Assembly: GCA_964344565.1 (NCBI GenBank)
Contig: CAYFNT010000019.1
Span: forward strand, 6,196-70,195
Length of the DNA: 64,000 nt
Origin: an uncultured bacterium
Lineage (GTDB): Bacteria > Krumholzibacteriota > Krumholzibacteriia > JACNKJ01
Direction: 5' to 3'
Shown: piece by piece, positions 8,306-60,276 of the stretch
Layout: each line of letters begins with the position of its first letter
How positions within the stretch are numbered: position 1 is the stretch's first letter
Translations under genes and position numbers: made by a program
Notes under the pieces: generated by a model
What the model saw: only the letters and a program-made list of their open reading frames with translations
Database searches by the model: none
What the model was told of the DNA's origin: nothing

Positions 8306-8468
8306 CGATCTCCGCCTTTCGCCCGTCTGGCGGGCCCAGACAATATAGCCAGGGGAGGCAGGCCCATCAATCGAAGCCTTTGCGATAAAATCGTTTCCCG
8401 GCCCCTTGGAAGTACCGATCCGGATTGCTACTATGCCCCGTCGAATCGGCATGGGTGAAGGAGGGGAT

Positions 8469-9905
8469 ATGCCGCCCAAGACTTCCACCGCGCTGCTCGC
8501 ATGGGCGAAAAAGAATCGCATCGAGGTCGTGGACCTCAAGTTCGTGGACCTTTTCGGCCGCTGGCACCACATTAGTCTGCCGGCCAGTCGCCTCGGACCC
8601 GACCTTTTCACGCGGGGCATCGCCTTCGACGGCTCCAGCGTGCCGGGCTTCAAGAAACTCGAGGCCGGCGACATGGTGCTCTTGCCCGATCCGAAGACCT
8701 CGAGCATCGATCCGTTCTGGGAAAAGAAGACCCTCTCGCTCATCTGCCAGCCCGCCGAGGCCGACACGCGAAAGGCCTTCTGGAAGGATCCCCGCGCCAT
8801 CATGTACAACGCCGAGGCCTGGATGCGCGAACTCGGAATCGCCGACCAGAGCGAGTGGGGTCCCGAGTTCGAGTTCTACATCGTCGACTCGGTGAGTTAT
8901 CGCAACGAGATCAACGAGGCCTTCTACCGCATCGACAGCGCCGAGGCCGACTGGAACTCCGCGGTGGAGGAGGGACAGAACCTCGGTTACAAGATTCCGC
9001 ACCAGGGCGGCTATCACGCCATTCCTCCCCACGACCAGCTCTTCGACCTGCGCGCCGAGATGGTGGCCGAGATCGAGAAGGCCGGCATCGACGTGCGCTA
9101 TCATCATCACGAGGTGGGTGGGCCCGGACAGAGCGAGATCGAGGTGGTCGAAGGCCCCCTCGAGCAGATGGGCGACAACGCCCTGCGCATCAAGTACATC
9201 ATCAAGATGGTGGCGGCCCGCGCGAACAAGACGGTGACCTTCATGCCCAAGCCCCTCTTCAACGAAGCGGGCAGCGGCATGCACTTCCATCAGCGCCTTC
9301 GCAAGGGCAAGAAGAACCTTTTCTGGGACGCCAAGGGATACGCCGGGCTCAGCAAGACCGCCCTGCACTACATCGGCGGGCTCCTGGCCCATGCGCCTGC
9401 GCTGCTGGCCTTCACGAACCCGAGCACCAACAGCTACAAGCGTCTGGTGCCCGGATTCGAAGCGCCCGTCCGCACCTTCTTCGGATTGGCCAACCGCAGC
9501 GCCGCGGTGCGCATTCCCAAGTATGCGAACAGCGCGGCGACCAAGCGCATCGAGTTCCGTCCGCCGGACGCCAGTTGCAATATCTACCTGGCCATGGCGG
9601 CCCAGCTCATGGCGGGCCTGGACGGAATCCGCCGCCAGCTGGATCCCACGGAACTGGGTTTCGGGCCCATCGACACGAACATCTACGAGCTGTCCGATAC
9701 GGAACTCGATCGCATCGGCGGATTGCCCACGAGTCTGCGCGAAGCCATGGTGGCCCTCAACGCCGACCGCGACTTCCTGCTGGAGGGCGGCGTCTTTCCC
9801 GAGGAGCTCATCGACTTCTGGATCGAAACGAAGATGGAAAAGGAGTACAACGAGGTGCGGAACCGTCCGCATCCCTATGAGTTGTCCCTGTACTTCGACG
9901 TGTAG
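8469..9905 (+). CDS. glnA: Glutamine synthetase type I
   Basis: HHEVGGPGQSEIE, KPLFNEAGSGMHFHQ and NRSAAVRIP motifs, about 478 aa, GGAGG RBS before MPPKTS. Confidence 0.85.
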   Translation: MPPKTSTALLAWAKKNRIEVVDLKFVDLFGRWHHISLPASRLGPDLFTRGIAFDGSSVPGFKKLEAGDMVLLPDPKTSSIDPFWEKKTLSLICQPAEADTRKAFWKDPRAIMYNAEAWMRELGIADQSEWGPEFEFYIVDSVSYRNEINEAFYRIDSAEADWNSAVEEGQNLGYKIPHQGGYHAIPPHDQLFDLRAEMVAEIEKAGIDVRYHHHEVGGPGQSEIEVVEGPLEQMGDNALRIKYIIKMVAARANKTVTFMPKPLFNEAGSGMHFHQRLRKGKKNLFWDAKGYAGLSKTALHYIGGLLAHAPALLAFTNPSTNSYKRLVPGFEAPVRTFFGLANRSAAVRIPKYANSAATKRIEFRPPDASCNIYLAMAAQLMAGLDGIRRQLDPTELGFGPIDTNIYELSDTELDRIGGLPTSLREAMVALNADRDFLLEGGVFPEELIDFWIETKMEKEYNEVRNRPHPYELSLYFDV

Positions 9906-9920
9906 CCGAGCGGAGGACGC

Positions 9921-11135
9921 ATGTTCATCAACGATCCCATTCATGGATTCATCGAGCTGAACGATCTGCAGTCCTCCCTGCTCGAACTGCCCGAACTGCA
10001 GCGCCTCCAGTGGATACGCCAGCTGGGCCTGAGCTTCCTCAGCTATCCCGGCGGCGTGCACACCCGGGCGAGCCACGTGGTCGGCGTGAGTCATGTGGCC
10101 GGCGAGATGGCCCGCATCTTCGATCTGCTGCCCGAGCAGAAGTGGCTGGCCCAGGCGGCGGGCTTGCTCCACGACCTCGGCCACACGCCCTTCAGCCACG
10201 CGCTGGAGACCCTGCTTCCCGACGATCACATGGAACTCACGAGCAATCTCATCACGGGGAAGATGCGATTCAGCTTCCCCGGCGCGGGATGGGTGCCGCG
10301 GGTGCTCGAGCGATTCGGTCTGGATCCCGAGGAGGTGGGCGATCTGGTGGTGGGGCGGCACGAGGATCCGATTCTGCAGAATATCATCCACGGGCCCATC
10401 GACGCCGATCAGCTCGACTACCTTCTACGCGACAGCTACTTCACCGGCATCAGCCACGGGCAGATCGATCTCTATCGGATCCTGCACACCCTGAAGCCCG
10501 ACGCCGAGGCGGGGCGCGTCTTCCTGCTCGAGAAGGGCCTGGACGCCATCGAGGAGATGCTCGTCGCACGCGATCACATGTATTCGGCGGTCTACGCGCA
10601 CAAGACCAGCCGCATCGCCGAGACCATGCTGCTGCGCGCCATGGAACTGGCGGTGAGCGAGATCGAGGGCTGGTACGAGATGACCGACGGCGAGCTGCTC
10701 ACGCGCATCCGCATGGCCGGCGGCGTGAGCGAATCGCTCATGGAGAAGATTCTCTACCGCAATCTCTACAAGACTGCCTTCAGCGTACCGAGCAAGGTGG
10801 CCGAAGGCGAGCGCAGCGCGCTGATGGAGCGCCTCGCCGGACGCGATCGCCAGACCCTGGAGACGGCACTCTGCGATCTCTGCGGCCTCGGTCCCGGCGA
10901 ACTGCTCGTGGACATGCCCCTGGACGTGCTCGCTTTCAGCGAGCCTCGACTCACGCGCTTGGAACTGCCCATCCTGCGCAAAACCGGCGAATGGGCCGAG
11001 CTCGACGAGATGAGCACCCTGGCCCGGGCCCTCATGGAGAAGGAGTCGGCGCACACGGTCTTCGCCGTGTTCACCGCCGACGAGAACGCGCTACGTGTTC
11101 GCGCGATTCTTCAGGATTGGTTGGAGGAAGGGTAG
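9921..11135 (+). CDS. HD-domain phosphohydrolase (dNTP triphosphohydrolase-like)
   Basis: HTRASHVVGVSHVAG then HDLGHTPFSH, the HD motif of the dGTPase/SAMHD1-like superfamily. Confidence 0.75.
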   Translation: MFINDPIHGFIELNDLQSSLLELPELQRLQWIRQLGLSFLSYPGGVHTRASHVVGVSHVAGEMARIFDLLPEQKWLAQAAGLLHDLGHTPFSHALETLLPDDHMELTSNLITGKMRFSFPGAGWVPRVLERFGLDPEEVGDLVVGRHEDPILQNIIHGPIDADQLDYLLRDSYFTGISHGQIDLYRILHTLKPDAEAGRVFLLEKGLDAIEEMLVARDHMYSAVYAHKTSRIAETMLLRAMELAVSEIEGWYEMTDGELLTRIRMAGGVSESLMEKILYRNLYKTAFSVPSKVAEGERSALMERLAGRDRQTLETALCDLCGLGPGELLVDMPLDVLAFSEPRLTRLELPILRKTGEWAELDEMSTLARALMEKESAHTVFAVFTADENALRVRAILQDWLEEG

Positions 11136-30550: not shown

Positions 30551-30880
30551 ATGCCCAAATTGCCGCGGTCCGACGCCGCACTTCAGGCCCTGGCGCAGCG
30601 ATTCAAGCTGCTTGCCGAACCTGTCCGTCTGAGGATCCTCGAGATCCTGGCGGAGGGGGAGAAGTCCGTCCAGGAAGTCACCGCCGCCTCGGGCCTGCGC
30701 CAACCGCACATTTCCCGCCAACTTGCGATACTCGCCGAATCCGGCGTCCTCCTTCGACGTAAGGAGGGGACTCGCGTATACTACTCGCTCAGCGATTCCC
30801 ATATTTCCGCGCTTCTGGACGCTGCCGGCCGCTCGCTCCGCGAGCACCTCACCGGGCGTCTGGAGCAACTGGAGGAATGA
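30551..30880 (+). CDS. ArsR/SmtB family transcriptional regulator
   Basis: LLAEPVRLRILEILAEGEKSVQEV...SRQLAILAESGVL winged HTH, 109 aa. The stop overlaps the start of the M16 peptidase gene (ATGA). Confidence 0.85.
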   Translation: MPKLPRSDAALQALAQRFKLLAEPVRLRILEILAEGEKSVQEVTAASGLRQPHISRQLAILAESGVLLRRKEGTRVYYSLSDSHISALLDAAGRSLREHLTGRLEQLEE

Positions 30881-33800
30881 TGAAGAACCCTCTGATTCCC
30901 GTTATCGTCGTCCTGGTCGTCCTCGCCATGTTCATGTTGGTGTTCAAGTCCGGCGGGGATGGGCTGGAGAGCCTCGAGCATGGCCAGGTCATCCACGGTT
31001 TCGCCGTGGAGAATCTTTACGTGGACGGTGCCGATCGGGCCATGGGCGCGCGCTTCATCTCCGAGGAGAAGGGCTTCATCGTCGACCTGCTTCAGATCCA
31101 GTCGGTGCCCCAGGGATTCATCTGGGTGAAGAGTCCGCCGGATTCCGATCGCGGCGAACCCCACGCCTGCGAGCATCTGCTTCTGGGCAAGGGTCGTCAG
31201 GGACGCTACGTGGCGGCGCTGGAGGCCATGACCCTCGGCAACGCCAGCGCCTGGACCGCGCAGACCAACACGGTCTACCACTTCAACACCCTGGGCGGTG
31301 AGGAGAACTTCTTCGCCACCTTCGAGGCGCGGCTGAACGCCCTGGTGAATCCCGATTTCACCGACGAGGAGATTCGCCGCGAGATCGTCCATCTCAGCGT
31401 GGTGGAGGATGCCGGCGGCGAGTTGGGCCTCGAAGAGAAGGGTTCGGTCTACACCGAGATGGTGAGCAGTTTCGAGGGACCGGGCTATCCGCTCTGGGGC
31501 GGCGTGGGCGACATGCTCTTCGGCAAGGACCATCCCCTGGCCAACAGCTCCGGCGGACATCCCGACTCCATGCGCAGCATGACACCCGAGCACATGCGCG
31601 ACTTCGTGGCGGATACCTACCGGCTTCCGAACATGGGCATCATCGTGTCGGTGCCCAGAAGCTTCGAGATGGAGGATCTGCTCGAGGAGTTCGAAGGCAT
31701 CCTCGATCGCGTGCAGCCGGGCAAGCTCGAGAGCGATTTCGTAGGCATGAACGCCCTGAACCTTCCCCCGATCACCGACGCCGATCCCGAAGGCGCCGTG
31801 CGCATCGCCGCCTACCCCAGCGACAATCCCGAAGATCCCGGGGAGGTGCTCGTGGTCTGGCCGCCTCGGGATCCTCTGGCGAACTTCGACCGCTTCATGC
31901 TGGAGACCTTCCTGGACGGTTTCGCGGGCGGCCCCGGCACCGAGCTTTACGACCTCTTCATCAATTCCGAAACACGAAAGGTGGAGCTGGGAGCCAGCGC
32001 CGTATGGAGCTACGTGCCCGAGGAGCCCGGCTCGCCGGTCTTCTTCGGCCTGGACGGCCTGGACAACCGCAACATCGAGGGACGCAGCCTGCGGAGGGCG
32101 CGGGGGCTCATCGTGGAGGAACTGCACAAGCTCTACGAATTGGAATCGGGTTCGGAGGAGCTGGACGACTTCAACGATCGCGTGTCCAGCAATCTCGTGC
32201 AGACCCGCAAGTACCTCGAGCGCGCCTTGAATTCGCCGCCCCAGTTCGGCTTCCGCATGAGCGGCATGGCCAGACGCTGGCAGGACATCATGGCCTTCCT
32301 CGAGCTGGACGAGGGATTCCGCAAATCCCTGGTCATGGACTCGCATTTCGTCCGGGCCGAGGAACTCCTCGCCGGCGATGAGAACTTCTGGCAAGAGCTG
32401 CTGGATCGCTGGGGCCTGCTCGATGCGACGCCATACGTCATGGCGGTGCATCCGGATCCCGGCATGCTGTCGGCGGCCGAGGAGGCCAAGCGGGCCCGTC
32501 TGTCCGCGGCCATCGAGGGGATGAAGGACCGATTCGACGAGGATGAGGCCCAGGTTGCCCTGGCCAGGTTCCGCGATGAGTTCGATGCGAACACGGCCGA
32601 ACTCGAGGCCATCGCCGCCGAGGAGACCCTTCCCGGATTCATGGACGATCCGCCCATGGAGATTGACGAGCAGCTCCGGTACGAGACCGTGGCACTTCCG
32701 GGCGGGGCTGAGATGGTGGCCGCCACCTTCGAGAACATGAGCACTGCGACCCTGCAGGTCAGTTTCGGCCTTCAGGCCGTACCCAGCGACAAGCTCGTCT
32801 ACCTGCCCCTGCTGCCCTACCTCATGCGTGGCGTGGGCGTGGAACTGGACGGCGAGCGCATCGAGTACGACGACATGGAGAAGCGTCTGCGCGCGGAGCT
32901 CCTGTCCTACCGGGCCGACCTGACCACCAATCCCGAGACCGGCCGCGCCGAGTTGGTGTTCAGCTTCGGCGCCAGCAAGCCCGACGAGATCGATCGCGGT
33001 TTCGAGTGGATGCGCGCCTCGCTCACCGCGCCGCTGCTCGACGGGGACAACCTGTCCCGCATCGGCGACCTGCTCGACCAGCGCCTGCACCGCATGCGTA
33101 CGCGCATGCAGGGCAGCGAGGAATCCTGGGTGAGCGATCCGGCCGCGGCCTATCGCTACCAGGACGATCTCCTCTATCTCAGCGCGGGATCCTTCCTCAC
33201 CCAGACCCATCAGCTGCTTCGACTCAAGTGGCGCTTCACCGAGCCCGACGGCGAGGGCGAAGCGTATCTGGACGAGCTCGAGCGGCGCGGCCGCGACGCC
33301 TCGCGCGAAGAACTCTTGGCCCTGCTCGACGGAGCGCCGGAGGAAGGCATCCGGGCGGACCTCGCCTCCTCCCTTCGGTCGAGTCTCCCGGCTCTGCCCG
33401 ACGCCTCGATATCCGATGATTGGGCGCGGCTCTGCGCCACACTGCGCAGCGAGCTGGCCACGCCGCCGGATCAGGCCTTCACCGACCTGCGCGCTTTGCT
33501 GGACCTGTTGGCCCGCGCCGAGAATGCCCGCCTGTCCCTGGTGTCCAACTCCCGGGATCGCGGCGAGAAGCTCGGCGTCATCGAAGCCTTCCTGGCGGAC
33601 TTCTCCGGCAAGGGGGCGCCGGCCGCACAGAAACACCACCGTCGGGACTACGTGCTGGATCGCTATCGCGAGCGCAGCGGCATGACGGACAAGCCGATCT
33701 ACGCGGGACTCGTGAATGAGAACACGCGCAACGGCACCCTCATCTTCTCAGCCCGCATGGCCGAAGCCTGGCAGGCCGACCGCGAGTCGGCCCTCAACGC

Positions 33801-34377
33801 CCTGACCGGCCGGCTCTTCGGCGGCGGCGGCGGGCACGGTTTCTTCATGCGCACCTGGGCCGCCGGCCTGGCCTACAGCAACGGATTCGGCTATCGCGAA
33901 AACACGGGCATGACCACCTACTACGCGGAGCGTTGCCCGGACGTGGCCGAAACCATGCGCTTCGTGGTGGGGGTGCTCGAGGACACGGAGCTGGACGCCA
34001 GCTTCAAGGACTATTCCATCGCCGGCATGTTCGGACGCTCCCGCGCCGCCGCAGGCTACGAATCCCGCGGGCAGGCCATGGCCGCCGACCTCACGGACGG
34101 TTTCGGGCCGGAGCGCGTCCGAGACTTCCGCGGACAGGTCATGGATCTGCGCGGATGGGGCGAACTCCTGCCCGACATGCAGTCCCGCCTGGATGCAGTC
34201 TACGGCAGCGTGCTCATCGGCTACGGCGAACCATTGTCCGAGAGTCGCGACGGCGTCTTCTTCCTCATCGGTCCCGAGCCTCAATTCGAATCCTTGGAGA
34301 CCTACATCGCCACGGTTGAAGAGCCGCAGGCCGTGCATCGACTCTATCCCCGTGACTTCTGGCTCGTGGACCTGTAG
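30877..34377 (+). CDS. Large membrane-anchored M16-family (pitrilysin/insulinase-like) zinc metallopeptidase
   Basis: Inverted zincin motif HACEH (HxxEH) followed by NASAWTAQTNTVYHFN and downstream Glu residues. N-terminal signal-anchor MMKNPLIPVIVVLVVLAMFMLVF. 1166 aa. Confidence 0.75.
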   Translation: MMKNPLIPVIVVLVVLAMFMLVFKSGGDGLESLEHGQVIHGFAVENLYVDGADRAMGARFISEEKGFIVDLLQIQSVPQGFIWVKSPPDSDRGEPHACEHLLLGKGRQGRYVAALEAMTLGNASAWTAQTNTVYHFNTLGGEENFFATFEARLNALVNPDFTDEEIRREIVHLSVVEDAGGELGLEEKGSVYTEMVSSFEGPGYPLWGGVGDMLFGKDHPLANSSGGHPDSMRSMTPEHMRDFVADTYRLPNMGIIVSVPRSFEMEDLLEEFEGILDRVQPGKLESDFVGMNALNLPPITDADPEGAVRIAAYPSDNPEDPGEVLVVWPPRDPLANFDRFMLETFLDGFAGGPGTELYDLFINSETRKVELGASAVWSYVPEEPGSPVFFGLDGLDNRNIEGRSLRRARGLIVEELHKLYELESGSEELDDFNDRVSSNLVQTRKYLERALNSPPQFGFRMSGMARRWQDIMAFLELDEGFRKSLVMDSHFVRAEELLAGDENFWQELLDRWGLLDATPYVMAVHPDPGMLSAAEEAKRARLSAAIEGMKDRFDEDEAQVALARFRDEFDANTAELEAIAAEETLPGFMDDPPMEIDEQLRYETVALPGGAEMVAATFENMSTATLQVSFGLQAVPSDKLVYLPLLPYLMRGVGVELDGERIEYDDMEKRLRAELLSYRADLTTNPETGRAELVFSFGASKPDEIDRGFEWMRASLTAPLLDGDNLSRIGDLLDQRLHRMRTRMQGSEESWVSDPAAAYRYQDDLLYLSAGSFLTQTHQLLRLKWRFTEPDGEGEAYLDELERRGRDASREELLALLDGAPEEGIRADLASSLRSSLPALPDASISDDWARLCATLRSELATPPDQAFTDLRALLDLLARAENARLSLVSNSRDRGEKLGVIEAFLADFSGKGAPAAQKHHRRDYVLDRYRERSGMTDKPIYAGLVNENTRNGTLIFSARMAEAWQADRESALNALTGRLFGGGGGHGFFMRTWAAGLAYSNGFGYRENTGMTTYYAERCPDVAETMRFVVGVLEDTELDASFKDYSIAGMFGRSRAAAGYESRGQAMAADLTDGFGPERVRDFRGQVMDLRGWGELLPDMQSRLDAVYGSVLIGYGEPLSESRDGVFFLIGPEPQFESLETYIATVEEPQAVHRLYPRDFWLVDL

Positions 34378-34510: not shown

Positions 34511-34969
34511 ATGATAACTCGGATTCTCGATGTTCTCGTTTCCCGACTCAACGAACACCTTCAATCCGAGTTGGGATTGCCTTCGAATCTTGTCGGCCTC
34601 GCACCGCCGCCGAAAGACGGTTTGATGGAAAAGTCGGATCGCGTTGATCTGACATTTCTGAGCATCGAACCGGATCCGCATTCAAGGAACTCGGGGAGTT
34701 CGCCTGCTGCCTTGAATCTGGATGTGCGAGTGGCTTTCAGTTTTCACGGCGAATCCTACGGCGCGGCCCTCGATCTGGTGTATGCGGTTCTGGATTTCTT
34801 CCATCGGAACGTCGTTTTCGAAATCGATGCGCAGGAGACTTCCAACGGTCTGAGGGTGCAGGTCGAACAGCAGAGCCCATCGACCGAGGAAGTCAACTAT
34901 CCATACAGGGTCGTTTACCCAACCCCGGCTCCGCGACTCGACTACCGCATTCGAATCCAGGAGATGTAA
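34511..34969 (+). CDS. DUF4255-like protein (Afp16/Pvc16 N-terminal-domain-like component of contractile injection systems), tentative
   Basis: 152 aa and a GAGGAGG RBS. The start MITRILDVLVSRLNEHL resembles DUF4255 family starts. Sits immediately upstream of the sheath gene. Confidence 0.5.
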   Translation: MITRILDVLVSRLNEHLQSELGLPSNLVGLAPPPKDGLMEKSDRVDLTFLSIEPDPHSRNSGSSPAALNLDVRVAFSFHGESYGAALDLVYAVLDFFHRNVVFEIDAQETSNGLRVQVEQQSPSTEEVNYPYRVVYPTPAPRLDYRIRIQEM

Positions 34970-34975
34970 TCGAAG

Positions 34976-36445
34976 ATGGCACCCAAGAAGAGAACTGCTA
35001 GATCGCGTCGCCTGAAGACTCCCGGCGTTTATGTGGAGGAAGTTTCGTTCTCGGTGCCATCGGTGGCCGAAGTGGAAACCGCCGTTCCGGCGATCATGGG
35101 ATACGTGGAGAGGGCCGACGTACTTTTCGAACCCGTAGCAGTCAAGTCCATGGTGGAGTTCCGGGAGTTGTTCGGTGGGGAGGCGCCGCTTCGCATCGAC
35201 GAGGTGCGGGTGGATCAGAACCATGCCTTCGAGTCGGCGCGCATTCGCGCAGGATCTCATCTGCACGACAGCATCCGTCTCTTCTACGAAAATGGCGGCG
35301 GGGGCTGCTACGTGGTTCCGGTGGGGACCTACTCGGATCGCCCCGAACTGGAGCACTTCGAGCGCGGCCTCGCCCGTCTTGCGAAGGAGGATCGCGTCAC
35401 ACTGCTCCTCTTTCCCGACGCCGTGCTTCTGAGCAAGGATCTCTACGCGGTGCAGAAACTCGCCCTGAAGCAATGCGGCAAGCTCCAGGATCGTTTCGCG
35501 ATCCTCGATCTCCATGATATCCGGGAGATGCCCAGTCCTCTGGTCTCGGGTTTCCGATCGGAAATCGGGATCGAAAACCTGAAGTATGGAGCCGCCTACC
35601 TTCCTCACCTCGAGTACCCGTCCGGACGATCCCTACGCTTCCGTGATTTGAAGGGAAAGCTGCGGCGAGGGGAAGAGTCGATGAGGATTGGCGATCTGAT
35701 CGAGGATCGCGAAGAGTTCCGCGAGCTTGCTCAGAAACTCGAAGGGCTCATCGATGAGTATCCAGACGGCTCACCCACGGCTGAGGAGAGCGAACTGGAG
35801 ACGGAACTGAGGGCCGTGTCGGCCAGGTTCGGGGCCCTGCTCGGCGAAATCGAGATGCTTCCGTCATTCGTTCCTCCGAGCGGAGCGGTGGCGGGCCTGT
35901 ACGCCTTGACGGACACCACGCAGGGCGTCTGGAAGGCCCCGGCGAATGTGGCCCTGGGAGGCATCACCGGAGTGGCATGTTCCATCGACAGTCACGATCA
36001 GGATAGCCTGAACGTGGATCCCGCATCCGGAAAGTCCATCAATGCGATCCGTCCCTTTATCGGAAAAGGTTGTCTGGTCTGGGGGGCGAGAACCCTGGCT
36101 GGAAACGACAACGAGTGGCGTTACGTGCCGGTTCGGCGCTTTGTCATCATGCTGGAGAAGTCCCTGAAGAAGTCGATCCAGTGGGCGGTCTTCGAGCCTA
36201 ACGATGCGAAGCTCTGGGTCAAGGTGAAGGGCATGATCGAGAACTTTCTCACCGTGAAATGGCGCGAGGGGGCCCTGATGGGCAGCATGCCGGAATATGC
36301 ATACTACGTCAAAGTCGGCCTGGGGCAGACCATGACCGAACTGGACATTCAAGAGGGCCGGCTGAACATCGAAGTGGGCTTCGCGCCGTTGAAGCCCGCC
36401 GAGTTCATCGTTCTGAAGTTCTCCCACAAGATGTTAGAGAGCTAG
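34976..36445 (+). CDS. Contractile phage-tail/eCIS sheath protein
   Basis: N-terminal KTPGVYVEEV. The C-terminal sheath domain shows GVWKAPANVALGGITGV, GCLVWGARTL, NEWRYVPVRRFVIMLEKSLKKSIQWAVFEPND and FLTVKWREGALMG, all hallmark Phage_sheath motifs. Confidence 0.85.
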   Translation: MAPKKRTARSRRLKTPGVYVEEVSFSVPSVAEVETAVPAIMGYVERADVLFEPVAVKSMVEFRELFGGEAPLRIDEVRVDQNHAFESARIRAGSHLHDSIRLFYENGGGGCYVVPVGTYSDRPELEHFERGLARLAKEDRVTLLLFPDAVLLSKDLYAVQKLALKQCGKLQDRFAILDLHDIREMPSPLVSGFRSEIGIENLKYGAAYLPHLEYPSGRSLRFRDLKGKLRRGEESMRIGDLIEDREEFRELAQKLEGLIDEYPDGSPTAEESELETELRAVSARFGALLGEIEMLPSFVPPSGAVAGLYALTDTTQGVWKAPANVALGGITGVACSIDSHDQDSLNVDPASGKSINAIRPFIGKGCLVWGARTLAGNDNEWRYVPVRRFVIMLEKSLKKSIQWAVFEPNDAKLWVKVKGMIENFLTVKWREGALMGSMPEYAYYVKVGLGQTMTELDIQEGRLNIEVGFAPLKPAEFIVLKFSHKMLES

Positions 36446-49200: not shown

Positions 49201-49235
49201 AGTTCTCAGTTCTAAGTTCTAAGTTCTAAGTTCTA
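49201..49235. repeat. Inverted-orientation heptanucleotide repeat, 5 units (AGTTCTN), abutting the ParA stop codon
   Basis: agttctc agttcta x4. These are the reverse complement of the NNGAACT units at 49055-49152. Confidence 0.9.
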
Positions 49236-50285
49236 ATGCCATCCCTCTTCGACGCTGCCTTCGTACTCGTCGAGATTCGGACGGGTCACCTTGCAGGCGT
49301 CCGAGTCGCTCTCCTCGACCTCGTCCAGGGAGATGATGTCGTCCTCGGGGCTTCCGCTGTTGCCCTTGCCTCCGAGTTCGTCCTCATCCTGCAGCAGGAT
49401 CTCGCCGGTGGCCGTGAGCACGGGCGAAGGCTTGGTCACGGTGGAGATGGCCTCGGCCAGCACGCTCTCGCGTACTTCTTCGGCCGACGCAGCCGGACGC
49501 TGTTCCGCGCGCCGCTCTGTGACGATGCTCGCGAGCACCTCGTCGGCGAGGGATGCGAAGGCCTGCGCGGCCGCGCCCGCGCGATTGAAGAAGTTCACGG
49601 GCTTGCCGCGCTGGGCGACTTCGGCGAGGCGCACGCTGCGGGGCACCTGGGTCTCGAAGACCTTGCCGGGATAGGCTTCGCGCACGCGCGAGGTCACCGA
49701 ATTGGCCATGCGCGTACGCAGGTCGACCTGGTTGAGCACGATGCCGGCGAGTTCGGGCAGGGGCTGATCGCCCTCGCGCATCTCGTCCATGGCGTCGAAG
49801 AGACGCGGCAGGGCCTGGAAGGCGAGTTCCTCCACCTGCAGGGGCACGATGAGCGAGTCGGCCGCCATGAGCGCCGAGGTCGTCAGGGGGCCCAGGTTCG
49901 GAGGACAGTCGAGCATCACGAAGTCATAGTCCTTCTTCACCGGGGCCAGGCCTTCGGCGAGGCTCTCCGGCGAGATGGCCGCCCAGGTGAGGAGCTGTTC
50001 CTCCTCGTCGCGGCTCCAGACGTTGCTCGTGATGAAGTCGAGATTGTTGAGACCGGTCGGCTGGATGCTCCTGGCCGGACTGCCGTCAGGATCGAAGAAA
50101 TCAAGCAGTCCGAAATCCACCGAGAAGCGCTCCTGACCGAAGCTGCTGATCACACCACACTGAGGGTCCACGCCGACGACGAGGCAACTGAAGCCCTTGT
50201 CGGCGAGTGCGGCAGCGAGATTAACCGCCACCGTCGTTTTGCCCACCCCGCCTTTGGGGCAGACGACAGCCAACGAGCGTCCCAT
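49233..50285 (-). CDS. parA: ParA/MinD-family ATPase with an acidic C-terminal extension of about 100 aa
   Basis: Deviant Walker A CPKGGVGKTT. The C-terminal region is rich in E/D (DEDELGG...EEDDIISLDEVEESDSD). Confidence 0.8.
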   Translation of the reverse strand: MGRSLAVVCPKGGVGKTTVAVNLAAALADKGFSCLVVGVDPQCGVISSFGQERFSVDFGLLDFFDPDGSPARSIQPTGLNNLDFITSNVWSRDEEEQLLTWAAISPESLAEGLAPVKKDYDFVMLDCPPNLGPLTTSALMAADSLIVPLQVEELAFQALPRLFDAMDEMREGDQPLPELAGIVLNQVDLRTRMANSVTSRVREAYPGKVFETQVPRSVRLAEVAQRGKPVNFFNRAGAAAQAFASLADEVLASIVTERRAEQRPAASAEEVRESVLAEAISTVTKPSPVLTATGEILLQDEDELGGKGNSGSPEDDIISLDEVEESDSDACKVTRPNLDEYEGSVEEGWH

Positions 50286-50294
50286 GTAACTCCT

Positions 50295-50309
50295 TGAATT
50301 GTATTCAAT
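50295..50309. promoter_or_regulatory. Palindrome TTGAAT-tgt-ATTCAA in the parA/P-type-ATPase divergent region. Candidate operator.
   Basis: Perfect 6-bp inverted repeat 10 nt upstream of the parA ATG. A second palindrome CCCTCgGAGGG follows. Confidence 0.35.
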
Positions 50310-50438
50310 TGCATGTATGCCTGAGATGTCCCTCGGAGGGAGCGCAGATATTATCCCGTCACCTTTTCATTGGCAAGCAGTTTCCCCTCATGCAGCATGT
50401 GCATCGTGCGAATTATCGCGCCGAGCCGAGAAGGGACC

Positions 50439-52301
50439 ATGGCCGAGATCCGACTCACGGTGAAGGGGCTGGCGGGATGGGAGGACCCTCCCCGCGTGGC
50501 TCGCATTCTGCGCGGGGTTCCGGCCGTGGAGGACGTGTCGGTGGACGCCGCCAGCGGGCAGGCCTGGGCGCGCGGTCGCGGGCACCTGCCGCTTCTCGGC
50601 ATGCTGGAAGCGCTTCACCGCGAGGGTTACGAGGCGGAACCCGCCACCGAGGACACGCTCTTCCCATCCATCTTCCGCGACGAGCAGACGGTGCTCCGCA
50701 GGATGCGCGGCGCGCTTCTGTGGACCCTCGCCCTGCTGCTTGTGGATCTCCTGATGCCCGCCGGGCGCATCGCCCTGACCGCGGGGATGCTTCTGGTGCT
50801 GGGCTTTCTGTCCACCACCGGGCGAGCCCTCTGGCGGACCGCCGTGCCAATGCTGCGTCGTGGACGTTGGGGCGAGACGCCCCGCGCCGCCATCGCGCTT
50901 CTGCTGCTCAGCGTTTCGCTGCCCCTCGCCTGGATGAACGGCGAACAGGTCTTCTTCTCCCTGCCGGCCCTGGTCGGCACCCTGCTCCTGCTCTCGCGAT
51001 GGCTGGAGCTTCGCTGGAGGCGCGTCCTGCGCAACGATCTGAAGGACGGCGACTCGCGCGCTTCCATCTTGCAGGAAGCCTTCGGCGGCGCCGACGCCCC
51101 CGAGGGGGCCAACAAACGGGTGGGGGACGCGCTGGCCATGGCCCTGCCCATCCTGCTGCTGCTCTGGCTGGCGATGTCGCTCGTCCTGCACTTGGGAAGC
51201 GCGGCGATTCTGCGCGGCCTGGCCGCCGTCCTTCTGGCGGGAGGCAGCCGCGGGCTGACCCTGTCCTATCCCTCGGTGATGGTGGCCGGACTGACGCGGG
51301 CGTTCTCCTTCGGACTGGTTTTTCGCCGGGCCCGCATCCTGCGGAACTTCCATCGCGCCGACATCCTGGCCACCGATCGGGTGGGCGTACTCACCCGAGC
51401 TCAGGCCGAGGTGGAGTCGGTGAAGGTGCTGGGCAGTTCTTCCACCGATCGAATCTACTCGGAGGCGGCGGGGGCCCTGGCCGAGGCGGCCCATCCCCTG
51501 CTTCAGGCTCTTCATCGTTTCCTTTCGGATCGGGCCGAGACCGAGAGCCATCCGCTCTCGGTGATCAGACGGCCGGGCGGCGGCCTCGAGGCGGAGACCG
51601 CCGGACGTAATCTGCTCATCGGACATCCCTGGTTCCTGCAGCGGGAAGGGGTGGACCTCGAGGAGGTGCGCGAAGTCCTGGAGCACTTCGGCGAACAGGG
51701 ATTGTCCATCGTGACCCTCGCGGTGGACGGAAAGATGCGCGCGGTTTTCGGCCTTCGCGTTGACGCGCGCCCCGAAGCGCCGAGCCTCATACGGCGCATC
51801 GCCGAGTTCGGTCTCGCGCCCGTCCTGCTCACCGGCGAGAGCGAGGGCCTCGCCCGCCGGGTGGCCGAGAGCAACGGCATGAGCGAGTTCCACGGCGGAC
51901 TGGGAAGCGACGAACGCGCCCGGGTGCTGCGGGAGAAGACCCAGGCCGGAGCGAAGGTGGCTGCCGTGGGCATCGGCAGTCACGACGCGCCCGTGCTGGC
52001 GGCGGCCGACTTCCCCGTGTCCCTCGGCCCTGAGGCTCCCGCGGAGAAGCCCGGGCTCATCCTTCCCTCGGGACGGCCGGCCGATCTCCTGGACGCCCTG
52101 GCCTTCTCGCGCCATGTGGACGCACTTCGCCGGCAGAACTTCTGGCTCGCCGGCGGACTGCTTCTGCTCGCCCTCATCCTGGCCTTCTCCGGACTCCTCG
52201 GCCCTCTCGGATCCACGGCCATGCGCGTCGTCGCCGTGCAGGCCCCCCTTGCCAACAGTCTGCGCACCCACTCCTTCCGCTTCGAATCCTCCTCTCAGTA
52301 G
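50439..52301 (+). CDS. P1B-type (heavy-metal) ATPase homolog with degenerate catalytic motifs (probable pseudo-ATPase)
   Basis: HMA-like N-terminal domain without CxxC (GLAGWED). TM6 reads GSRGLTLSYP where CPC is expected. DRVGVLT replaces DKTGTLT. GIGSHDAPVLAAAD replaces GDGxNDAPALAAAD. LLTGES replaces MLTGDN. The actuator domain is largely missing. Confidence 0.7.
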   Translation: MAEIRLTVKGLAGWEDPPRVARILRGVPAVEDVSVDAASGQAWARGRGHLPLLGMLEALHREGYEAEPATEDTLFPSIFRDEQTVLRRMRGALLWTLALLLVDLLMPAGRIALTAGMLLVLGFLSTTGRALWRTAVPMLRRGRWGETPRAAIALLLLSVSLPLAWMNGEQVFFSLPALVGTLLLLSRWLELRWRRVLRNDLKDGDSRASILQEAFGGADAPEGANKRVGDALAMALPILLLLWLAMSLVLHLGSAAILRGLAAVLLAGGSRGLTLSYPSVMVAGLTRAFSFGLVFRRARILRNFHRADILATDRVGVLTRAQAEVESVKVLGSSSTDRIYSEAAGALAEAAHPLLQALHRFLSDRAETESHPLSVIRRPGGGLEAETAGRNLLIGHPWFLQREGVDLEEVREVLEHFGEQGLSIVTLAVDGKMRAVFGLRVDARPEAPSLIRRIAEFGLAPVLLTGESEGLARRVAESNGMSEFHGGLGSDERARVLREKTQAGAKVAAVGIGSHDAPVLAAADFPVSLGPEAPAEKPGLILPSGRPADLLDALAFSRHVDALRRQNFWLAGGLLLLALILAFSGLLGPLGSTAMRVVAVQAPLANSLRTHSFRFESSSQ

Positions 52302-52394
52302 GTTCTTTTTACCGATTGCTCACGGCCTTCGCGTTGACGGCGAGGCCTCCTCTGTGCTTTTTCATGGGAGCTAACTCGCTACAAGGACGGACCT

Positions 52395-52637
52395 ATGTCT
52401 CAGGATCATAAAGTCGGAATCGAATACTGCGTGGTCTGAAACTACGAACCGCGCGCCGCCGGTCTGGCGGCTGCCATCCAGAAACGCTTCGGCATAAGCA
52501 CCGAGTTGATCAAGTCCGGGGGCGGTGTCTTCGAGGTGGAATTGGACGGGAACGTGATCTTCTCCAAGAATGCCACGGGCCGATTCCCGGACGAGCCTGA
52601 AGTCTTCGAGGCCATCGAGGCCCGACTCGGGATCTGA
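52395..52637 (+). CDS. SelW/Rdx-family selenoprotein (CxxU) with an in-frame UGA at 52437-52439 read as selenocysteine
   Basis: ATG at 52395 gives MSQDHKVGIEYCVV-U-NYEPRAAGLAAAIQKRFGISTELIKSGGGVFEVELDGNVIFSKNATGRFPDEPEVFEAIEARLGI. This matches the bacterial SelW-like pattern IEYCxxUxYxPRA...SGGVFEV...GRFP. The reading frame continues after the TGA to a TGA at 52635, which overlaps the next ATG. Confidence 0.7.
52455..52471 (+). other. SECIS-like hairpin GCCGCC-GGUCU-GGCGGC downstream of the in-frame UGA
   Basis: The stem-loop begins 16 nt after the UGA. Its apical loop GGUCU is identical to the E. coli fdhF SECIS loop, and the spacing of about 24 nt from UGA to loop is typical. Confidence 0.6.
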
Positions 52638-53845
52638 TGTTTCACAGCAAAGACTACTACAGAAAGCTCGACGAGATCCTCGACCAGATCGAGGACGTCC
52701 GCGACGCGCATCGTCATCTCGCCGGCATGGTGGACCGCATCGTCGAGACCTTCAGCGACGATCTGGGCATCACCAGCGGACGCCTCTACCTGCGCGACGG
52801 GGGCGACTACAAGCTGGAGCACTGCATCGGACGGGATCCCTCGACCTTGAAGGGTCTGCGAATTCCCCTGCAGTACCCGCCCGTGCGCGCGGCCCACGAA
52901 AGCCGCATCGTGGTCATGGACGACGAGTTCCCCGGCCGCGATCCTGTCATCGAGAGCCGACTTCAGATCTCGCACTACGCGGCCTTCACCCTGCACAGCG
53001 GGGCATATCTGGTCAGCTTCGGCCTGAACTCCGAACTGGACCAGGACGATCAGGTCTTCGCCCTCAGCGCCATCCGCCACGCCCTTTCCCTGCGCTTGCG
53101 CGAGGCCAGCATGGCGGAGGAACTCGACCAGGCCGAGGCCATCCAGCTCAGCCTTCTTCCCTCCCGGAGCCCCCAGTTCGAGGGATACGAGATCGCCGCC
53201 CGCACGGAAGCGGCCGAGGCCGCGGAGGTGGGCGGGGACATCCATGACTTCATCGAGCTGGGGCCGGATATCCTCGGCATCGCGGTGGGGGACGCCAGCG
53301 GCCACGGTTTGCCCGCGGCCTTGCAGGCCCGCGACGTGGTCACGGGACTGCGCATGGGCGTGGAAAGGGAGCTGAAGATCACGGCAGTGATCCGTCGGCT
53401 CAATCGCGTGATCCACGCCAGCAATCTCTCCACGCGTTTCGTGAGCCTCTTCTACGGGGAGCTCGAGAGCAACGGGAACCTGGTCTTCGTGAACGCCGGG
53501 CATTGCGAGCCCCTCCTCCTCCTGCCGGGTGGCGAGGTGGACAGGCTCAGCTCGGGAGGCGTGATTCTCGGGCCCACGCCCGATGCCGAGTACCACCGCG
53601 GGCATGTGCTCATGGAGCCCGGAGCCCGGTTGCTGCTCTTCAGCGACGGTCTGACCGAAAGATGGGGCGGCCAGGAGGAATTCGGAGAATTGCGACTTCT
53701 GGAACTTTTCCGCGCCTGCGAGGGAATGGGCGCCGAAGAGACGATCGAACGTATCTTTAAGGAAATCAGAGACTTCGGAAAGACCGCGCCCTGGGAGGAC
53801 GACGTGACGGCCGTGGTGGTACACCGAAAGTTACCTAGAGATTAA
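52637..53845 (+). CDS. PP2C-type serine phosphatase (SpoIIE/RsbU family) with an N-terminal GAF-like sensor domain
   Basis: GDIHDF, GDASGHG and FSDGLTE PP2C motifs. Start overlaps the selenoprotein stop (TGATG). Confidence 0.8.
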   Translation: MFHSKDYYRKLDEILDQIEDVRDAHRHLAGMVDRIVETFSDDLGITSGRLYLRDGGDYKLEHCIGRDPSTLKGLRIPLQYPPVRAAHESRIVVMDDEFPGRDPVIESRLQISHYAAFTLHSGAYLVSFGLNSELDQDDQVFALSAIRHALSLRLREASMAEELDQAEAIQLSLLPSRSPQFEGYEIAARTEAAEAAEVGGDIHDFIELGPDILGIAVGDASGHGLPAALQARDVVTGLRMGVERELKITAVIRRLNRVIHASNLSTRFVSLFYGELESNGNLVFVNAGHCEPLLLLPGGEVDRLSSGGVILGPTPDAEYHRGHVLMEPGARLLLFSDGLTERWGGQEEFGELRLLELFRACEGMGAEETIERIFKEIRDFGKTAPWEDDVTAVVVHRKLPRD

Positions 53846-53935: not shown

Positions 53936-54388
53936 GTGCTCTACTCAAAAGCCAGCGAATACGCGATCCGCGCCATGGTTTTCCTCGCCGAACAGCCCGA
54001 AGGCGAGCTGATCCAGCTCAAGGAGGTCGCGGCCAGGGAAGACATTCCCTTCCATTTCCTGGCCAAGACCATGCAGATCCTGTCTCGGCGCGGCCTGGTG
54101 CGAAGCCATCGCGGGCCCCGCGGAGGATTCTGCCTGGCCCGAGACGCTGGAGAGATCACGCTCTACGACATCGTCGATCCCATCGACCACATCACCAACT
54201 ACGACGAGACCTGCATTCTCGGCATCCATCCCTGCAATGACGAGGCGGCCTGCCCGCTCCACGACGAGTGGAAGAAGATCCGTCGATCCATCCGTTTGAC
54301 CTTGGAAGGCAAGAGCTTGCGGGACATGGTGGGGCGCCTCGAGGAGAAGCGGGCCATCCTGTCCGAGATGGGCTTGACCGGCGAATAA
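53936..54388 (+). CDS. Rrf2-family transcriptional regulator (IscR-like, with Cys ligands for an Fe-S cluster)
   Basis: SKASEYAIRAMVFLA wHTH, RGPRGGF and a C-x6-C-x5-C-x2-H cluster (CILGIHPCNDEAACPLH). GTG start after GGAGG. Confidence 0.8.
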   Translation: MLYSKASEYAIRAMVFLAEQPEGELIQLKEVAAREDIPFHFLAKTMQILSRRGLVRSHRGPRGGFCLARDAGEITLYDIVDPIDHITNYDETCILGIHPCNDEAACPLHDEWKKIRRSIRLTLEGKSLRDMVGRLEEKRAILSEMGLTGE

Positions 54389-57858: not shown

Positions 57859-60276
57859 ATGCCCTACGATCCTTCGAAGATCGAGCCCAAGTGGCAGCAG
57901 TATTGGAGCGAAAACAAGACCTTCCGCGCCGAGGACGGCGGGAGCAAGCCCAAGTACTACGTGCTGGACATGTTCCCCTATCCCTCCGGCGACGGGCTGC
58001 ACGTCGGTCATCCCGAGGGCTACACCGCCACCGACATCGTCTCGCGCTACAAGCGCATGCGCGGCTTCAACGTGCTGCATCCCATGGGATGGGACGCCTT
58101 CGGCCTGCCCGCCGAGAACTACGCCGTGAAAACGGGCACCCATCCGCGGCTGACCACCGAGAGGAACATCGAGACCTTCCGCCGCCAGCTGCAGATGTTC
58201 GGCTTCAGCTACGACTGGGATCGCGAGGTGGCCACCACCGATCCGGACTACTACAAGTGGACCCAGTGGATCTTCACCCTGCTCTATGGCAAGGGCCTGG
58301 CCTACGAGGCCGAGGTGGCGGTGAACTGGTGCCCGGCCCTGGGCACGGTGCTCGCCAACGAGGAAGTCGTCGACGGCATGAGCGAGATCGGCGGGCATCC
58401 GGTGGTGCGCCGACCCATGCGCCAGTGGATGCTGAGGATCACCGACTACGCCGAGCGGCTGCTGGAGGATCTGGAGGAACTGGACTGGCCCGAGTACATC
58501 AAGGATCTGCAGCGCAACTGGATCGGCCGCAGCGAAGGCGCCGAGGTGGACTTCGTGGTGGAGGGCCGCGAGGAGAAACTGCGCATCTTCACCACCCGTC
58601 CGGACACGCTCTTCGGCGCGACCTACATGGTGCTTAGCCCCGAGCATCCCTGGGTGAGCGATCTCTGCGATTCGGACTGTCGCGACACTGTGAAGGGCTA
58701 CTGCGAGGAAGCCTCGCGCAAGAGCGACATGGACCGCCAGATGTCCAGGGAGAAGACCGGCGTCTTCACGGGCAGCTACGCGGTCAATCCGGTGAACGAT
58801 GAACGCATACCCATCTGGATCGCCGACTACGTGATGATGGGGTACGGCACCGGCGCCATCATGGCCGTGCCCGGACAGGACGAGCGCGACTGGGAGTTCG
58901 CCGAGAAGTTCGACCTGCCCATCATCCGCACGGTCGAGCCGCCGGAGGACTGGGACGGCAAGGCCTACGCGGGCGAGGGCCTGGCCATCAACAGCCAGTT
59001 CCTCGACGGGCTCGGCGTGGCCGATGCCATCGCCAGGATGAACGCCTGGCTCGAGGAGAAGGGCCTGGGCAAGGCCACGGTGCAGTACAAGCTGCGCGAC
59101 TGGCTCTTCAGCCGCCAGCGCTACTGGGGCGAGCCCTATCCCCTGCACCGGCTCGAGGACGGCAGCATCCGCGCCCTCGAAGTGGACGAGCTTCCCCTCA
59201 CCCTGCCCGAGGTGGACAAGTACGAGCCCGCCGGCACCGGCGAGGGTCCCCTGGCGGCCATCGGCGAGTGGATCAACATCACCGATCCGAAGACCGGGCG
59301 GAAGGCCATGCGCGAGAGCAACACCATGCCCCAGTGGGCGGGCAGCTGCTGGTACTACCTGCGCTTCATCGATCCCCGCAATCCCGACGAGGCCTGGAAC
59401 GCCGATCTCGAAAACTACTGGATGCCGGTGGATCTCTACCTGGGCGGCACCGAGCATGCGGTGCTGCATCTGCTCTACGCCCGTTTCTGGCACAAGGTGC
59501 TCTTCGACCTGGGCCTCGTGTCCACCAAGGAGCCCTTCCAGAAACTGCGCAACCAGGGAATGATCCTGGGCGAGAACGGCGAGAAGATGAGCAAGAGCCG
59601 CGGCAACGTGGTCAATCCCGACGACGTGATCCGCGACCACGGCAGCGACTCCCTGCGCCTCTTCCTCATGTTCCTGGGGCCCCTGGAACGCGACAAGCCC
59701 TGGAGCACCACGGGTATCGAGGGCATCCACCGATTCCTGGACAGGGTCTGGCGCCTCTTCCACGACGATGAGGACGCGCCCCATCCGGCCGTGCAGGATG
59801 TGGCACCCGACGAGGACACGCTCCGCCTGCTGCACAAGACCATCGCCGAGGTCACCCGCATGACCGAGGACCTGCGCTTCAACACGGCCATCAGCCAGAT
59901 GATGATCTTCGTCAACGAGATGATGCCGCGGGAAGTTCGCAGCCGCGAGGCCCTGGAGAAGTTCATCCGCCTGCTCGCGCCTTACGCCCCGCACCTGGCC
60001 GAAGAAGTCTGGAGCCGCCTGGGCCATGAGGAGTGCATCGCCTACCAGCCCTGGCCGGCGTACGACGAGAAGTGGCTGGCCGAGGACACGGTGACGGTGG
60101 TGGTGCAGGTGAACGGCAAGCTGCGCGACAGCTTCGAGCTGCCGGCCGACGCCGACGAGGAGGCCGTGCAGGCCAAGGTCGCCGAAAGCGAGAAGCTGGC
60201 TCCCTGGCTTGCGGGCAAGAACATCGTCAAGACCATCTACGTGCCGGGCAAGCTGGTGAACCTGGTGGTGAAGTAG
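57859..60276 (+). CDS. leuS: Leucyl-tRNA synthetase
   Basis: HVGHPEGY (HIGH) and KMSKSRGN (KMSKS) motifs plus an editing domain. 805 aa. Confidence 0.95.

Follow-up and report, generated by a model that had tools for sequence, protein, structure and literature searches.

A probable non-pumping pseudo-ATPase descended from a copper-exporting P1B ATPase at a conserved locus of Candidatus Krumholzibacteriota

What becomes of a copper pump that keeps the overall build of its family and has lost the residues with which such pumps work? The question is raised by a gene at 50439..52301 (+ strand) of a 64-kb stretch of DNA from an uncultured bacterium (contig CAYFNT010000019.1; the whole stretch is hereafter the window). 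A preliminary description made from the sequence letters had called its product a P1B-type ATPase homologue with every catalytic motif degenerated, a probable pseudo-enzyme. From the sequence comparisons below we consider it likely that the gene encodes a retained, non-pumping pseudo-ATPase that descends from the Cu+-exporting P1B-1 ATPase CopA and acts through binding. The lineage is Candidatus Krumholzibacteriota; the leucyl-tRNA synthetase (LeuRS) encoded at 57859..60276 of the window has its best named relatives in Candidatus Krumholzibacteria/Krumholzibacteriota (73–77% identity).

The reading frame that begins at 50439 is real, since a Shine-Dalgarno-like GAAGGGA precedes its ATG and the N-terminus MAE(I/V)RL is common to all orthologues, canonical CopA included; an alternative, longer form would start with TTG at 50370. 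GC content at third codon positions is 0.83, similar to that of the neighbouring genes, i.e., native codon usage. The 620-residue product is a true homologue of P1B copper ATPases. It matches TIGR01525 (E=1.6e-45; 156 bits vs. a cut-off of 346.25), the CopA equivalog NF007952 (E=2.6e-37; 128.5 bits vs. 1316), the ZntA profile (E=1.3e-26) and TIGR01494 (46 bits vs. 62.3), missing every curated P1B cut-off, and among structures in the PDB it matches HMA4, CopA, CadA and ZntA (E 1e-16 to 1e-23; HMA4, CopA and ZntA at about 1e-23). A Pfam scan of the protein placed PF00702 (HAD) below its gathering score (24.3 vs. 26.4 bits) and gave no match to PF00122 (E1-E2_ATPase, the actuator or A-domain) or to PF00403 (HMA); the CopZ model scores 21.6 vs. 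85 bits. The parts of the gene referred to below are as follows (pLDDT, predicted local distance difference test; P0071, a related protein).

50439..52301, + strand: putative CopA-derived pseudo-ATPase gene, 620 aa plus stop (profile, PDB, orthologue and model matches)
50439..50648, + strand: HMA-like N-terminal domain, residues 1–70, with GLAGWED at 50466..50486 and the clade signature GRGHLPLLG, common to the canonical orthologue
50670..51038, + strand: helices MA, kinked MB, M1 and M2, residues 78–200, by the model; the P1B-specific extra helices are kept
51030..51128, + strand: A-domain remnant linker, residues 198–230, by alignment, Pfam and model (pLDDT 67–68)
51243..51251, + strand: former CPC Cu+ site of M4, now G269-S270-R271; Arg271 is fixed throughout the A-domain-less clade
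51375..51395, + strand: DRVGVLT, residues 313–319; Asp313 kept, His in the P0071 lineage
51492..51587, + strand: nucleotide-site remnants of the N-domain by alignment, H352-P353-L354 and P379-G380-G-G382; L347 for Glu
51825..51842, + strand: LLTGES, residues 463–468; T465 and G466 kept, Asp to E467
51915..51917, + strand: R493 in place of the motif-III Lys, by alignment
51969..51992, + strand: GIGSHDAP, residues 511–518, by alignment; D516 kept
52080..52298, + strand: M5, M6 and C-terminal tail, residues 548–620, with L574-L575, R596..V600 and the tail motif S/T-F-x-F-E

Motif states were read from an alignment of the protein to canonical sequences, in which each of the six changes listed in the preliminary description was seen: the HMA metal loop GMxCxxC is G10-L-A-G-W-E-D16; CPC of M4 is G269-S270-R271; the phosphorylation motif DKTGTLT is D313-R-V-G-V-L-T319, with the Lys and both Thr of DKTGT replaced and its Asp and Gly kept; (M/L)LTGD is L463-L-T-G-E-S468, with Asp changed to E467; GDGxNDAP is G511-I-G-S-H-D-A-P518, with the first Asp lost, Asn changed to H515 and D516 kept; and the A-domain, about 115 aa including TGES (about 115 alignment columns), is replaced by a 33-residue linker (198–230). 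The HAD motif-III Lys is R493, YN of M5 is L574-L575 and MxxSS of M6 is R596..A599-V600. The six transmembrane Cu+ ligands of CopA lie in CPx of M4, YN of M5 and MxxSS of M6, in an account from which we also take the defining roles of DKTGT and of the A-domain GE motif (PMC7558416). All six are gone here, with Gly, Leu, Val or Arg instead, and the whole protein has no cysteine.

The claim that every catalytic motif is degenerated holds as to the changes themselves and is overstated as to their extent, since D313, G316, T319, T465, G466, D516, H352-P353 and P379-G380-x-G382 survive. Both N-domain motifs, H352-P353 and P379-G380-x-G382, are invariant among orthologues, and the canonical adenine-contacting Glu, five residues before the N-domain His, is an invariant L347. 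In terms of the HAD catalytic motifs I–IV, motif I reads D-R-V without a second Asp or Thr (the D+2 residue is Val, neither the general-acid Asp of HAD enzymes nor the Thr of P-type ATPases), the Lys of motif III is Arg, and motif IV has lost its leading acidic residue, which is the first Asp of GDGxND and which by homology with SERCA we take to be a Mg2+ ligand. Comparison with 44 canonical sequences gave the positions that switch between the classes (C to R271, K to R314, E to L347, S to A350, D to E467, K to R493 and N to H515), the arginines that are constrained in this clade only (R19, R22, R365, R377, R452, R453 and R498) and two clade-only constrained segments, G-H-P-W-F-L in the N-domain and the C-terminal S/T-F-x-F-E motif. 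To judge from these alignments, the active site appears remodelled rather than eroded, as its replacements are conservative and fixed across the family.

An AlphaFold2 model of the protein (pLDDT 87.6; predicted template-modelling score 0.84) retains the eight-helix P1B topology with MA and a kinked MB (helices 78–105, 110–140, 146–166, 175–200, 224–249, 254–290, 548–583 and 589–612); M4 is the sixth of the eight, and its helix break persists at 268–270. The HMA-like domain is modelled as beta-alpha-beta-beta-alpha-beta (E2-9 H16-25 E32-36 E41-46 H52-61 E65-68), so the ferredoxin-like fold of HMA domains is present in the model with a metal loop, GLAGWED, that holds no Cys. The P and N domains are intact, and the low-confidence 33-residue linker takes the place of the A-domain. 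Foldseek grouped the model with P1B ATPases; the best global superpositions were on E1-state structures (ATP7B 7xuk, TM-score 0.82; 7r0g, 0.72), while E2P structures gave about 0.47, and the model thus looks E1-like. Together with the TIGR01525 and PDB matches, the superposition on 7xuk bears out the earlier statement that the overall P1B layout is retained.

An orthologue search that covered 5.8 billion proteins gave a small family (P0001–P0009) of 54–100% identity, all full length and none with an A-domain. D313, R314, V315 and G316, R271, T465, G466 and E467, R493, G511, H515, D516 and P518 and the G-W-E-D loop are invariant in its alignment. The window's own protein occurs in identical form on 7 contigs, among them three that were assembled separately from two sequencing runs, and eight orthologous clusters have the same architecture; a frame or assembly error is excluded on these grounds. 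The ratio of nonsynonymous to synonymous substitution rates (dN/dS, or omega), calculated by the Nei-Gojobori method with two unsaturated pairs for the main figures, was 0.118 for the whole gene between the window and locus L010 (dS 0.70) and 0.096 between L004 and L011 (dS 0.62). In none of the eight sub-regions of the gene did omega exceed 0.21 for the two unsaturated pairs, or 0.44 for any of the pairs compared. The most constrained sub-regions were the HMA-like domain (0.04–0.14), the N-domain (0.04–0.09) and M5–M6 plus the tail (0.04–0.05), the least constrained the A-domain remnant and M3–M4. Eight neighbouring genes treated in the same way gave omega of 0.035–0.197, a range that includes the value of the ATPase-like gene, whose absolute dN is the highest of the set. 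The gene is under purifying selection like its housekeeping neighbours and is not decaying.

That the gene is a pseudogene in decay, or an artefact of sequencing or assembly, is therefore extremely improbable. Such an explanation would account for many motifs being altered at once and for a Pfam HAD score slightly under threshold, and it is opposed by the 7 identical contigs, by intact, full-length orthologues that carry the same motifs down to 54% identity, and by an omega of about 0.1, native codon usage and a confident fold prediction; decay was rejected on dN/dS both per domain and against the neighbouring genes. The gene is a pseudo-enzyme in the operational sense: it has homology to an enzyme family, has lost the catalytic residues and evolves with an omega of about 0.1. 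What the preliminary description had proposed, a retained pseudo-enzyme, is supported by orthologues that keep the degenerate motifs invariantly and by dN/dS of 0.096–0.118, and the sequencing or frame error that it had named as a way to be wrong is set aside by the repeated, separately assembled contigs.

The same figures bear on a passive channel or leak left behind after loss of the gating domains. For such a pore speak the complete eight-helix membrane domain, the M4 break kept at 268–270 and M5–M6 being among the most constrained regions. We nevertheless hold it to be very unlikely, because the old ion path is filled by Gly, Leu, Val and a fixed Arg, unlike a cation pore, and because the cytosolic domains are constrained at least as much as the membrane part, which a simple pore would not need.

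Between the P0001–P0009 family and ordinary P1B pumps, a profile search that covered 1.84 billion representatives, with 27,802 hits at E<=1e-3, gave relatives in graded states:

P0073, 726 aa: fully canonical, with CxxC, TGES, CPC, DKTGT, TGD, K, GDGVNDAP, YN and MxxSS; the HMA signature, here GHLPMLG, is already present
P0075, 544 aa: canonical motifs from CPC onwards to the C-terminal end; no match over the N-terminus, the HMA domain or the A-domain TGES
P0072 and P0340, 725 and 724 aa: A-domain (SGES), DKTG, TGD and Lys kept; CPC changed to PST, GDGxND to GDAVGE, no YN or MxxSS, one HMA-loop Cys
P0074, 609 aa: A-domain-less, with DRLGVLG, TGE, R and GTGSPD
P0071, fragment: A-domain-less, with HRIGFLT and GTGSHD; His at the nucleophile position

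Where canonical pumps have the first Asp of GDGxND, Ile, Thr or Gln is seen. No orthologue in the A-domain-less clade has intact motifs. A word-index search for a wider clade returned mostly canonical CopAs, with P0340 the sole new relative, and a scan of metagenome contigs with overly general patterns returned canonical pumps only (25–30% identity).

These states also weigh on the possibility that the protein has remained an enzyme or transporter but works by an unusual chemistry, either as a membrane-bound HAD phosphatase or ATPase working through Asp313 or a non-metal pump with another ion site. Asp313, T465, G466, D516, HP and GxG are all kept, the replacements are conservative (K to R twice, D to E) and a weak PF00702 match persists, as this proposal would have it. 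We regard it as quite unlikely, given that a protein with no A-domain or TGE has no P-type route of dephosphorylation, that Val stands at D+2 and Ile, Thr or Gln in place of the first Asp of GDGxND, that the P0071 lineage has His even at the nucleophile position, and that the six ion ligands are all Gly, Leu, Val or Arg, with 156 vs. 346 bits to TIGR01525.

The relatives can be ordered by their place in the chromosome as well. The shared slot extends from 2-oxoacid:ferredoxin oxidoreductase genes to LeuRS; between them lie, in this order, a divergent ParA-like gene, the gene for the ATPase or its degenerate counterpart, the genes for the SelW-like protein and the PP2C (SpoIIE) phosphatase, and (Rrf2, MoCF, MutY). 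Its occupants are the canonical P0073 (locus L016), the intermediate P0072 (L014/15, 8001..10178), the A-domain-less P0074 (L012/13) and the family of the window; the comparison took genes with enough flanking sequence, and P0071 (2-kb contig), P0340 and P0075 (no locus retrieved) are not placed. In two other Krumholzibacteria, whose LeuRS is just as similar, leuS is surrounded by other genes, so the gene cluster is not mere phylum-wide colinearity. As the same slot holds canonical CopA, half-degenerate and A-domain-less forms, the window gene is, by its position, the orthologue of a true copper pump. In a neighbour-joining tree, the locus clade and the A-domain-less subclade were each monophyletic in 200/200 bootstraps, and the intermediates P0072/P0340 grouped with the canonical forms. 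Two or more independent losses of the ion sites are thereby suggested, in a distance tree of few taxa in which shared ancestral motifs may attract. Four canonical sequences used as tblastn queries, and a survey of about 40 of its genes with Pfam, revealed no second, intact P1B gene within the 64-kb window.

The genes and intergenic elements around the ATPase-like gene are the following.

49233..50285, - strand: divergent ParA/MinD-type P-loop ATPase, by Pfam; found at the locus beside every form of the ATPase
50286..50438, no strand: divergent intergenic region, its 5' two-thirds strongly conserved across orthologues
50376..50348, - strand: conserved sigma-70-like promoter TTGCCA-17-TAATAT for the ParA-like gene, within 50340..50376
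52334..52362, + strand: element TTGAC followed by TGTGyTTTTT, in the 93-nt spacer that follows the ATPase-like gene; TTGAC unchanged at 10 loci
52395..52637, + strand: SelW-like (Rdx family) selenoprotein, 80 aa, CVVU motif; TGA at 52437..52439, hairpin at 52455..52471
52637..53845, + strand: PP2C (SpoIIE-family) phosphatase with a ~200-aa N-terminal domain without assignment; its start overlaps the SelW-like stop by 1 nt
53936..54388, + strand: Rrf2-family regulator with C-x6-C-x5-C, in A-domain-less loci only

The divergent neighbour is, as had been described, a ParA gene. Its product carries a C-terminal extension of about 90 residues with an acidic end, ISLDE..E....RP.LD.Y.....E...H (...LDEYxG..EEGWH), which was kept in 7/7 loci compared. 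A membrane tether or regulator for this ParA/MinD-like ATPase, whose acidic tail would dock on the arginine-rich headpiece, is thus a further conceivable role, one that would draw together the divergent arrangement kept at every locus reaching far enough upstream, the conserved acidic tail and the newly fixed R19, R22, R365, R377, R452, R453 and R498. It is unlikely all the same: the ParA-like protein and its tail are equally conserved beside canonical CopA and the intermediate, with no co-variation with the ATPase state, and the two genes are paired by divergent promoters only.

Between the ParA-like and ATPase genes of the canonical and intermediate loci only, with no counterpart in the window, sit small signal-peptide proteins (L016, 7613..7900, - strand, 95 aa; L014, 7694..7906, - strand, 70 aa) that both end in SWSNIK(V/A)LW. 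These small open reading frames were considered as a copper regulator and rejected, being neither CsoR- nor CopZ-like and having no Pfam match.

Downstream of the ATPase or its degenerate counterpart, all ten loci compared carry a SelW-like selenocysteine gene and then a PP2C gene, the comparison for PP2C covering the loci other than L011. With U read as C, the SelW-like protein matches PF10262 (E=8e-20). Its in-frame TGA is kept in all 10 related loci, and 18 nt after it lies a GC-rich, conserved hairpin with two compensatory pairs that resembles a selenocysteine insertion sequence (SECIS). In the public records examined, gene calls shorten or miss this selenoprotein, beginning after the TGA or skipping the gene. 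The TTGAC...TGTGyTTTTT element is a probable separate promoter or operator, of unspecified type, for the SelW-like and PP2C genes, and speaks for their being transcribed separately; a consensus scan found no terminator between the ATPase-like and SelW-like genes, and the intergenic fold is ordinary (z = -1.0). Rrf2 follows PP2C in the window, L004, L007 and L012 and is absent in L016 (canonical) and L014 (intermediate); its C-x6-C-x5-C looks like an Fe-S ligand pattern.

Farther away, the window holds genes with Pvc16_N and phage tail-sheath C-terminal domains (34511..36445, + strand) beside a 1166-aa open reading frame without Pfam match (30877..34377), and this region may be what is present of a contractile injection system, as a fragment, or of the tail module of a prophage. 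Neither Rfam nor tRNA scans gave a match in the 64-kb window.

How, then, would a retained, non-pumping descendant of CopA work? The E1-E2 (Post-Albers) transport cycle should be impossible for it, because there is no TGE loop to hydrolyse the aspartyl-phosphate, the first Asp of GDGxND is gone and no ion site is left. At the second Cys of CPC, the fixed Arg271 probably fills the old Cu+ site as a built-in positive charge, which would probably hold the membrane domain in one conformation. The former phosphorylation pocket appears rebuilt from D313, R314, T465, E467, R493, H515 and D516, and the headpiece gains new invariant arginines. Since the pocket is remodelled, HP and GxG are kept and these arginines are new, the headpiece would be a binding module without turnover, most likely for an anionic ligand (a nucleotide or phosphate compound) or for an acidic or phosphorylated partner; the retention of HP and GxG makes nucleotide binding plausible. 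The pseudo-ATPase would then serve as a membrane-anchored sensor or scaffold. Its best candidate partners, going by gene order alone, would be the SelW-like selenoprotein and PP2C, plus Rrf2 in the A-domain-less loci, and we think any particular one of them doubtful.

Several observations count against this proposal. Binding of a nucleotide or other ligand is weakened by L347 in place of Glu and by His in place of Asp in P0071. The 93-nt gap with its invariant TTGAC...TGTGyTTTTT makes it less than certain that the gene is transcribed together with those for the SelW-like protein and PP2C. Both of these neighbours accompany a functional-looking canonical CopA too, and their linkage therefore predates the loss of the pump and may be unrelated to it. 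The role given to Arg271 is by analogy only, the E1-like shape of an AlphaFold model is no evidence of a locked state, and all sequences derive from uncultured metagenome-assembled genomes (MAGs).

P-type ATPases rank with the best-understood membrane enzymes, and their motifs count as invariant; that a conserved lineage has shed the actuator and the ion sites and keeps what remains under strong selection would show that the scaffold can serve a role other than transport. A canonical-to-dead series of orthologues combined with conserved remodelling is unusual for P-type ATPases, and with canonical, half-dead and actuator-less forms at one locus it amounts to a natural experiment on the sequence in which a pump is taken apart, and on those of its parts that can be put to new use. 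To the fuller statement, that a bacterial P-type fold has turned into a non-pumping signalling or scaffold protein with an Arg-plugged copper site and a pocket rebuilt for turnover-free binding, by steps traceable at one locus, we give somewhat less than even credence. The present labels of the relatives ("P-type E1-E2 ATPase" in JGI annotation; "HAD family hydrolase" for P0074 at NCBI) would mislead metagenome surveys of Krumholzibacteriota if taken as copper resistance.

A protein of another lineage, P0368 (Polyangiaceae MAG, 749 aa, "HAD family hydrolase" at NCBI), has DKTGT changed to CARGT, the motif-III K to R and GDGxND to GRSPSD; CPC is absent and HP is kept. P0368 is an independent dead P1B homologue in another phylum, and it hints that such conversions recur and that P-type pseudo-ATPases form a class which has gone unrecognised.

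Among the papers covered, searches for pseudo-enzymes of the P-type ATPase class, for P1B proteins without an actuator and for FUPA families gave no description of such a protein, and the nearest parallels come from other systems. P4-ATPase-like domains are fused to apicomplexan guanylate cyclases, where some have degenerate catalytic motifs and serve as a regulatory module, not a pump; unlike the window protein, these eukaryotic domains belong to the P4 subclass, are joined to a cyclase and still have their A-domain. ZntA has in Lys693 (4UMV/4UMW) a built-in basic side chain in the transmembrane ion-binding region that works within an active cycle, whereas Arg271 replaces a metal ligand in a protein that should be unable to cycle. 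The PcrP/PA2803 subfamily of Pseudomonas aeruginosa belongs to the HAD superfamily and is reported to have a non-catalytic role (PMC12632274). It is a precedent for a bacterial HAD-fold protein kept for such a role, though a small, soluble one with no membrane domain, not a P-type ATPase and of an unrelated lineage.

The closest comparison remains CopA itself (Archaeoglobus fulgidus 3J09/7R0G, Legionella pneumophila 3RFU, ATP7B 7XUK), with which the putative pseudo-ATPase has in common its ancestry, an HMA-fold N-terminus, eight helices with MA and a kinked MB, P and N domains, HP, PGxG and the Asp of the phosphorylation motif. It differs from CopA in having no A-domain or TGE, CxxC, CPC, YN, MxxSS or any Cys, and in carrying DRVGV, R493, GIGSHD and TGE where CopA has DKTGT, K, GDGxND and TGD. 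The nearest canonical sequence, P0073, shares its chromosomal slot and the signature GHLP(L/M)LG. P0072 and P0340 share the clade of the putative pseudo-ATPase and the loss of Cu+ ligands, P0072 the locus too, but in these two the A-domain (with SGES) is still present, as are DKTG, TGD and the Lys of motif III. By ancestry, as read from sequence, the protein belongs to the P1B-1 (CopA) lineage, yet it lacks most of the features that define a functional member.

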